Shown here in pieces: positions 7,581 through 7,733 of a stretch of 64,000 bases of DNA. Made by a program: the position numbers and the translations under genes. The notes under the pieces are model-generated. The model had not been told where the DNA came from. It made no database searches and worked only from the letters and a program-made list of their open reading frames with translations. How positions within the stretch are numbered: position 1 is the stretch's first letter; every line of letters starts with the position of its first letter. This DNA comes from a phage, in assembly GCA_017864995.1 (NCBI GenBank), contig GCA_017864995.1_4097.1, one strand, 5' to 3'.

Positions 7581-7653
7581 GCCGACTTAGCTCAGTAGGT
7601 AGAGCAACTGACTTGTAATCAGTAGGTCACCAGTTCGATTCCGGTAGTCGGCA
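7581..7653 (+). tRNA. tRNA with UGU anticodon (Thr), copy A
   Basis: acceptor GCCGACT/AGTCGGC, D-stem GCTC/GAGC, anticodon stem ACTGA/TCAGT with loop CTTGTAA, T-loop TTCGATT. Confidence 0.7.
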
Positions 7654-7660
7654 CAAATCA

Positions 7661-7733
7661 GCCGTTTTAGCTCAGTTGGTAGAGCAATCGCCTTGTAAGC
7701 GATAGGTCATCTGTTCGAGTCAGATAAACGGCA
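7661..7733 (+). tRNA. tRNA with UGU anticodon (Thr), copy B
   Basis: acceptor GCCGTTT/AAACGGC, anticodon stem ATCGC/GCGAT with loop CTTGTAA, T-arm ATCTG-TTCGAGT-CAGAT. Confidence 0.7.

Follow-up and report, generated by a model that had tools for sequence, protein, structure and literature searches.

The 64-kb stretch of DNA analysed here (64,000 nucleotides; hereafter the window) comes from an Asteriusvirus, one of the PBECO4/121Q-like jumbo phages of Escherichia coli. ARAGORN called six tRNA genes in it, all on the + strand: tRNA-Ser(UGA), tRNA-Ser(GCU), tRNA-Met(CAU), tRNA-Asn(GUU) and two genes for tRNA-Thr(UGU). The last two, denoted T1 and T2, are adjacent and lie between two ORFs for hypothetical proteins, in the following order:

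7262–7289, + strand: promoter-like site matching the sigma-70 consensus at 12/12 positions (TTGACA-16-TATAAT), followed downstream by two small ORFs and then the tRNA pair
7391–7504, + strand: 37-aa ORF, hypothetical and conserved, between the promoter and the tRNAs, with annotated homologues in BF17, PBECO4 and 121Q
7581–7653, + strand: T1, tRNA-Thr(UGU), from ARAGORN, Rfam and identity to E. coli thrU
7607–7623, + strand: anticodon arm of T1, ACUGA-CUUGUAA-UCAGU, with a paired CNG (C28-U-G30 / C40-A-G42) and U36AAUC|A41
7654–7660, + strand: spacer CAAATCA (7 nt) between T1 and T2
7661–7733, + strand: T2, diverged tRNA-Thr(UGU), from ARAGORN and Rfam
7687–7703, + strand: anticodon arm of T2, AUCGC-CUUGUAA-GCGAU, with UCG at 28–30, CGA at 40–42, and UAAGC|G
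7751–8167, + strand: 138-aa ORF, hypothetical, conserved in all relatives and forming the 3' boundary of the tRNA slot

The first-pass annotation had placed two adjacent tRNAs with the same UGU anticodon at 7581–7653 and 7661–7733, and both programs agree with it. ARAGORN called tRNA-Thr(tgt) at 7581–7654 and 7661–7734, and the Rfam model RF00005 matched both genes over their full length with 73.8 and 73.9 bits, respectively (E ~2.5e-15), the top two tRNA matches within the searched region 3000–9000. The anticodon loop is CTTGTAA in both, and the differences that had been noted in the acceptor stem, anticodon stem and T-stem were borne out. With the structural elements separated by hyphens, T1 reads GCCGACT-TA-GCTC-AGTAGGTA-GAGC-A-ACTGA-CTTGTAA-TCAGT-AGGTC-ACCAG-TTCGATT-CCGGT-AGTCGGC-A and T2 reads GCCGTTT-TA-GCTC-AGTTGGTA-GAGC-A-ATCGC-CTTGTAA-GCGAT-AGGTC-ATCTG-TTCGAGT-CAGAT-AAACGGC-A. 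The two sequences are identical at 57 of 73 positions (78%), and the 16 that differ fall in the acceptor stem (5, 6, 67, 68), the D-loop (17), the anticodon stem (28, 29, 31, 39, 41, 42), the T-stem (50, 52, 62, 64) and the T-loop (59). All 21 cloverleaf pairs of T2 are standard and fully Watson-Crick; the sole non-standard pair of T1, A52.C62, is a mismatch also found in host thrU. When T1 and T2 were aligned with seven further alleles from relatives, 96.3% of the cells in this nine-allele alignment paired in the cloverleaf and 11 of the 21 pairs had changed on both sides, with acceptor pairs 1–3 invariant. CCA is encoded in neither gene: T1 ends in A73-C-A-A, and a CAAA(T/A)-like tail is found 3' of every tRNA-Thr gene in all relatives. 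Both are real genes for elongator tRNA-Thr(UGU), as computed from the gene calls and the covarying fold, and by the same signs they appear to be functional.

It had been suggested that one of the two might carry altered identity elements and be charged differently. Specific determinant positions of E. coli ThrRS were reportedly described by Hasegawa et al. in 1992; in T1 and T2 we take the threonine identity set to be G1-C72, C2-G71, G35 and U36, with A73 non-decisive. Comparison of the identity elements found T1 equal to T2 at every one of them, and G1-C72, C2-G71, C3-G70, G35, U36 and A73 are common to the pair and all seven other alleles. Threonine identity is known to reside in acceptor-stem pairs and anticodon nucleotides, with a weak contribution of N73 (PMC9976931). 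Since the ThrRS determinants are the same in both genes and across the alleles of the relatives, and neither G3.U70 nor any other foreign determinant was seen, the reading of altered charging fails; equivalent identity elements in both genes had been named in the first-pass annotation itself as its refutation. The closest database matches of both genes are all annotated as tRNA-Thr, and charging of both by the host ThrRS, as predicted from the shared identity elements, is the best explanation.

T1 is identical over 73 of 73 positions to the chromosomal thrU gene of E. coli, including the A52.C62 mismatch. Matches to T1 of at least 99% were found in 5420 E. coli records, and the chromosomal gene that it matches is present in 5421 of 5426 complete E. 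coli genomes, where it is the first gene of the thrU-tyrU-glyT-thrT-tuf(B) cluster. The other tRNAs of the window are only 74–79% identical to host tRNAs. Identity between T1 and the host gene ends after C74, the host continuing with CCATCAAG and the phage with CAAATCA. E. coli thrU and its exact copies in lambdoid and Stx prophages thus share with T1 the same 73 nt plus C74, but they encode CCA and have other flanks (CCATCAAG and CCATATG, respectively) where T1 has ACAAATCA; unlike them, T1 sits in the tRNA cluster of a virulent jumbo phage. A scan of IMG/VR for the thrU-body pattern retrieved only prophage-like contigs with exact thrU and CCA. Exact thrU with encoded CCA followed by TATG is common in small prophage-like contigs (>100 IMG/VR contigs), and in Stx phage phi467 an exact thrU copy stands beside tRNA-Gly(UCC), between stxAB and the lysis genes. 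Since prophages carry exact thrU, temperate coliphages would also carry a host-type tRNA-Thr(UGU) sensitive to the nucleases Old and AriB discussed below. The phage-specific junction TTCCGGTAGTCGGCACAAA was found in IMG/VR in 121Q only, and a search of metagenomes for it returned three chance matches to non-tRNA sequences. We also considered whether the body of T1 is kept frozen at host identity by continuing conversion. This idea was dropped, because between these clades other tRNAs of the phage show just as much conservation (tRNA-Ser(GCU) 100%, tRNA-Ser(UGA) 97.6–100%) and the conservation of the T1 body is therefore nothing special.

The locus is 98–99.8% identical to that of the E. coli jumbo phages Ecwhy_1, BF17, CMSTMSU and fEgEco12, and 83–96% identical to that of other Asteriusvirus genomes, such as PBECO4, 121Q, SP27 and G17. 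A gene with a thrU body occupies the T1 slot in every one of about 28 relatives, and the slot is ancestral to the genus. Most relatives have a single tRNA-Thr here. The description of the pair as unusual has to be qualified, for the pair is already annotated as 'tRNA-Thr (x2)' in the GenBank records of BF17, Turkey3, Turkey5 and JNE01, and the genome paper on fEgEco12 lists it without comment (PMC13070987). The locus was extracted from 13 relatives for allele comparison, with the following arrangements (anticodon stems are given as 5'/3' halves):

The window, Ecwhy_1, BF17, CMSTMSU, fEgEco12: T1 and T2; T1 thrU-exact (ACUGA/UCAGU), T2 with AUCGC/GCGAU
Turkey3: T1 and T2; T1 with AUCCC/GGGAA, T2 with AUCCC/GGGAU
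PBECO4, WPEC3, SD-2_S15: single gene with thrU body; AUCCC/GGGAA
121Q, G17: single gene with thrU body; UUCCU/GGGAA plus A26G and G45U
E9.1: single gene, thrU-exact
Turkey5, JNE01: a T2-like gene first (AUCGC/GCGAU), then a thrU-bodied gene (AUCCC/GGGAA)

Three anticodon-stem alleles are thus found in the T1 slot: the host stem ACUGA/UCAGU, AUCCC/GGGAA, which is the commonest in the relatives, and UUCCU/GGGAA. What separates them is almost confined to the stem itself. The PBECO4-type gene differs from thrU at 9 of the 10 anticodon-stem positions and at 0 of the 63 positions elsewhere (Fisher p = 1e-10), the G17-type gene at 10 of 10 and 2 of 63, respectively. All three alleles occur on one flank haplotype (group B: E9.1, PBECO4, SD-2_S15 and G17), within which the flanks differ at only 0–3 of 191 positions upstream and 1–3 of 436 downstream; between E9.1 and G17 there is one difference in 627 flank positions versus 12 in the tRNA (12 of 68 aligned columns). 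Conversely, the thrU-exact allele is present on two flank haplotypes, group A with T2 and group B without it, which are ~10% apart downstream. Since point mutation is unable to change four pairs and U43 on identical flanks, the stem alleles must, as far as these comparisons tell, move by short-patch recombination. A possible donor of the host-type stem would be at hand in every infected cell, on the chromosome and often in prophages. Each switch may have run in either direction, as the tracts end within arms in which the alleles do not differ.

T2 has a different history. It is identical to thrU at 57 of 73 positions, and five sister phages alone contain matches to it of at least 97%; in E. 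coli its best matches reach 83–86% and lie on plasmids of ~90–110 kb. A scan for a bacterial donor with the acceptor and D-arm of T2, covering one genome per GTDB species, returned only unrelated taxa with at most 65 of 73 positions matching. Among the relatives T2 is present in about 8 genomes. The T2 of the window differs from the T2-like gene of Turkey5 at 10 of 73 positions, with four pairs changed on both sides (4-69, 6-67, 10-25 and 52-62), and from the T2 of Turkey3 solely by a swap of G30-C40 to C30-G40. These compensatory changes between clades indicate that T2 is old, and to judge from them it is a functional tRNA, an older accessory paralogue whose divergence has gone hand in hand with that of the phage clades. 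The proposal that one gene of the pair is a recent acquisition can accordingly be retained only in a narrower form: the T1 slot is ancestral and T2 is not recent, but T1 is host-identical on flanks that bear other stem alleles in sister phages, and its host-type allele probably stems from recent recombination with a thrU-type donor.

The tRNA cluster as a whole is mosaic among Asteriusviruses, as seen when positions 3600–7800 of the window are compared with Turkey5 and 121Q. The tRNA-Ser(UGA) gene and an odd tRNA-like gene next to it are 97.5–100% conserved, whereas the tRNA-Asn alleles are unrelated sequences, and the alleles of tRNA-Asn, tRNA-Met and tRNA-Ser(GCU) have been replaced or lost in 121Q and Turkey5. 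In Turkey5 tRNA-Met is missing and an HNH homing endonuclease gene lies inside the cluster; the second serine tRNA of 121Q is annotated as Ser(act) in its record.

The odd tRNA-like gene (3756–3834, + strand) starts 5 nt after tRNA-Ser(UGA) (3662–3751); it was not called by ARAGORN and scored 32.6 bits with Rfam. It has the acceptor stem CCGGGCG/CGCCUGG, G73, an encoded CCA, a D arm of ~5 nt, the anticodon stem ACGGU/ACCGU with an invariant loop CUUCUAA (possibly UCU), a long variable arm and a normal T arm. Compensatory changes are seen in both the acceptor and the anticodon stem of its homologues from Salmonella phage 7t3 and Klebsiella phage Riker, which GenBank lists as 'tRNA-TERM' and 'tRNA-OTHER'; the 121Q copy is entered as 'tRNA-Leu(taa)'. 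The corresponding position in G17, slurp01, JP4 and Sharanji is occupied by a canonical tRNA-Arg(UCU). The tRNA-like product may be charged with arginine, with serine by virtue of its long arm and G73, or not at all; AGA makes up 26% of the Arg codons of the window. The gene called as tRNA-Met(CAU) (6125–6203, + strand) has a length of 79 nt and an enlarged D loop, and of the six ARAGORN tRNAs it scored lowest with Rfam (52.5 bits). It may be an elongator tRNA-Met or a lysidine-dependent tRNA-Ile2; ATA accounts for 27% of the Ile codons.

The consensus site at 7262–7289 is the probable transcription start for the small ORFs and the tRNA-Thr pair, and within 6900–8300 nothing resembling a terminator turned up between this site and the tRNAs. 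Just upstream of it, at 7006–7020 and 7127–7141, are perfect copies of a palindrome, TATTCAGTACTGAAT, which has 20 strand matches at up to two mismatches versus 0.43 expected, with about ten further sites (e.g. at 2705, 8996 and 37225). It is a candidate regulatory or protein-binding site of the phage.

Two Toprim nucleases of E. coli, Old of phage P2 and AriB of PARIS, cleave thrU within its anticodon stem (PMC12445682, PMC12409363). The target is the sole UGU tRNA of strain MG1655 and is of low abundance; Old kills by cutting it after C28 and C40, where CUG and CAG form a paired CNG pseudo-palindrome, and rescue from Old is provided by tRNA-Thr(UGU) variants of phages (PMC12445682). In the best rescuer resistance needs G30C/C40G together with U43A, the latter losing the 27-43 pair, and C28U/G42A alone gives no protection, a shortened stem being also needed (PMC12445682). 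For AriB, tRNA-Thr(UGU) is a prime and tRNA-Asn(GUU) a secondary target, with cleavage at U36AAUC|A41; tRNA-Lys is no longer cleaved when it carries U39A, and A41C inhibits its cleavage (PMC12409363). Variants of tRNA-Lys, tRNA-Thr and tRNA-Asn encoded by T5 jointly neutralise PARIS (PMC12409363, PMC11464382), and the Lys variant is required for the bypass (PMC12409363). The alleles of the tRNA-Thr slot compare at these sites as follows:

T1: Old site CUG/CAG, intact; 27-43 A-U; AriB positions 39–41 UCA, intact
PBECO4-type: Old site UCC/GGA; 27-43 A.A mismatch; AriB positions 39–41 GGG
T2: Old site UCG/CGA; 27-43 A-U in a full 5-bp stem; AriB positions 39–41 GCG

T1 keeps the CUG/CAG pair and an unchanged AriB site, and on this sequence both nucleases would be expected to cut it as readily as host thrU. 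T2 has no paired CNG in any register and carries G39, C40 and G41 at the AriB site, by which it plausibly escapes AriB. The shortened stem, in contrast, is found in neither T1 nor T2 but only in the PBECO4-type allele (A27.A43), which carries both published Old-resistance changes, G30C/C40G and U43A; T2, retaining the full 5-bp stem, meets one of the two published factors.

The P2-Old-resistant rescue tRNAs, tRNA-Thr6 and the tRNA-Thr of phage 21 (PMC12445682), have the same anticodon and the same host counterpart, thrU, as the present pair. In the Old-rescue tRNAs and the present alleles alike it is mainly the anticodon stem that varies, and neither T2 nor any variant allele of the T1 slot has a paired CNG. 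Unlike the rescue tRNAs, T2 has the full 5-bp stem and T1 is fully host-type. The tRNA-Thr of T5 shares with T2 the G30-C40 and C31-G39 pairs (hence U39G), but its overall sequence is unrelated to that of T2, and one Thr gene of the window is host-identical, unlike that of T5. The six tRNAs of the window also differ from the set of T5 in including no tRNA-Lys(UUU), so that T2 alone could not neutralise PARIS. The tRNA-Asn(GUU) of the window (6208–6279, + strand) has the anticodon stem UCAAA/UUUGG, without the paired CGG/CCG of host tRNA-Asn, and reads UAAUU|U (U39 U40 U41) where the AriB site of the host tRNA is UAAUC|C (U39 C40 C41); both Old and AriB are reported to cut tRNA-Asn as a secondary target (PMC12445682, PMC12409363). 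The phage tRNA-Ser(UGA), however, retains a paired CGG/CCG motif, and the tRNA set is therefore not generally CNG-avoiding.

P2 old was found at megablast similarity in only 17 of 5426 E. coli genomes. P2 Old as a common selective agent was not upheld at this frequency, which we keep as a caveat. In the clade of the window, furthermore, a resistant-type T1 stem has been replaced by the host type, which argues against strong current selection on T1.

We favour, with somewhat more confidence than doubt, the explanation that the locus combines a host-type dosage copy (T1) with a diverged, probably nuclease-insensitive back-up (T2) for ACA decoding. Both genes would be co-transcribed with the upstream small ORFs from the 7262–7289 promoter and released by RNase P and 3' trimming; since CCA is not encoded, the host CCA-adding enzyme would finish both tRNAs, and the matured molecules would read ACA, as well as ACU and ACG. 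T1 would be the resident thrU-derived gene of the genus, its host stem having arrived by short-patch recombination from the chromosome, a prophage or another phage; because it carries the host's own anticodon stem, it would act as a pure dosage copy in the supply of ACA-reading tRNA. T2 would keep ACA decodable if host-type tRNA-Thr(UGU) were destroyed. Its stem is without both CNG motifs of the Old site and without U39 and A41 of the AriB site, which is why it probably serves as a back-up insensitive to these nucleases; its resistance is a prediction from the anticodon stem.

The main rival, unlikely on balance yet deserving serious weight, is one of pure supply: the two genes would do no more than give the phage a larger amount of the sole tRNA that reads ACA, and the stem differences would be neutral products of frequent recombination in a mosaic region. 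Demand for such a tRNA is evident: in the 96 ORFs of the window (35% GC) ACA accounts for 36% and ACT for 44% of the Thr codons, together 80%, and ACA is used 26.9 times per 1000 codons, compared with roughly 7 per 1000 in E. coli. An extra tRNA-Thr(UGU) is useful with or without any nuclease. The other phage tRNAs likewise fit codons that are rare in the host and frequent in the phage (UCA, AGU, possibly AUA and AGA). Large virulent phages such as T4 and T5 have codon-compensating tRNA sets which, like that of the window, comprise a few tRNAs for codons frequent in the AT-rich phage and rare in the host. The exact thrU copies in lambdoid Stx prophages (phi467) and in the prophage-like contigs of IMG/VR would also fit supply, as would the general mosaicism of the tRNA region and the homing endonuclease gene within the Turkey5 cluster. 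Supply in the style of T4 and T5, however, creates no need for two sequence-distinct genes with the same anticodon or for stem-specific allele switching. Neutral drift fails to explain why the differences in the T1 slot fall almost only in the 10 anticodon-stem positions with pairing largely kept, and it leaves unexplained that the commonest allele has exactly the two changes that give Old resistance.

The favoured combination of dosage copy and back-up can be extended, tentatively and with more doubt than belief, into a view of the tRNA-Thr slot as an arms-race locus. Here the stem patch would be swapped time and again with the thrU of host and prophages and with co-infecting phages, the population would thereby alternate between host-type and nuclease-resistant stems, T2 would permit a genome to hold one stem of each kind, and the polymorphism would be balanced by Toprim nucleases cutting the anticodon stem (Old, AriB and possibly others that prefer variant stems). 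A related and improbable explanation is bet-hedging, in which host-type and variant stems are vulnerable to different nucleases, each phage keeping one of each while the population toggles the stem of T1. The three stem alleles on near-identical flanks, the host-type allele on two haplotypes and the presence of T2 alongside host-type T1 in five of the six genomes known to have the latter fit this scheme, but no known nuclease prefers the variant stems of tRNA-Thr, about two independent events underlie the link between host-type T1 and T2, and E9.1 has a host-type T1 and no T2. That one tRNA is mischarged or uncharged, a notion for which only the 16 positions differing between T1 and T2 speak and which the matching determinants and tRNA-Thr annotations oppose, or that T1 is a dead gene or an artefact of assembly from host reads, is very improbable; the artefact was rejected because the host-identical allele, devoid of host CCA and flanks, is common to six independently sequenced genomes from different countries.

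The pair exemplifies in nature a strategy of phages that was described only recently, and it is not a new type of system. Work of 2024–2025 established thrU as a prime target of two E. coli Toprim nucleases and phage tRNA-Thr(UGU) variants as antidotes, using T5, phage 21 and synthetic tRNA libraries (PMC12445682, PMC11464382, PMC12409363). To this the present locus adds evidence from natural variation in jumbo coliphages of the therapeutic type, in which the same gene, on near-identical flanks, has either the host stem or a stem with the resistance changes, and some genomes retain a second, diverged copy. Should there be no such resistance, the pair would just supply a scarce tRNA in double dose. 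If the resistance is real, the isolates form a ready isogenic series for the study of nuclease specificity, the tRNA-Thr allele could help to predict how Asteriusviruses plate on P2-lysogenic or PARIS strains, and the locus would present a virulent phage that exchanges sequence with a tRNA gene of its host.
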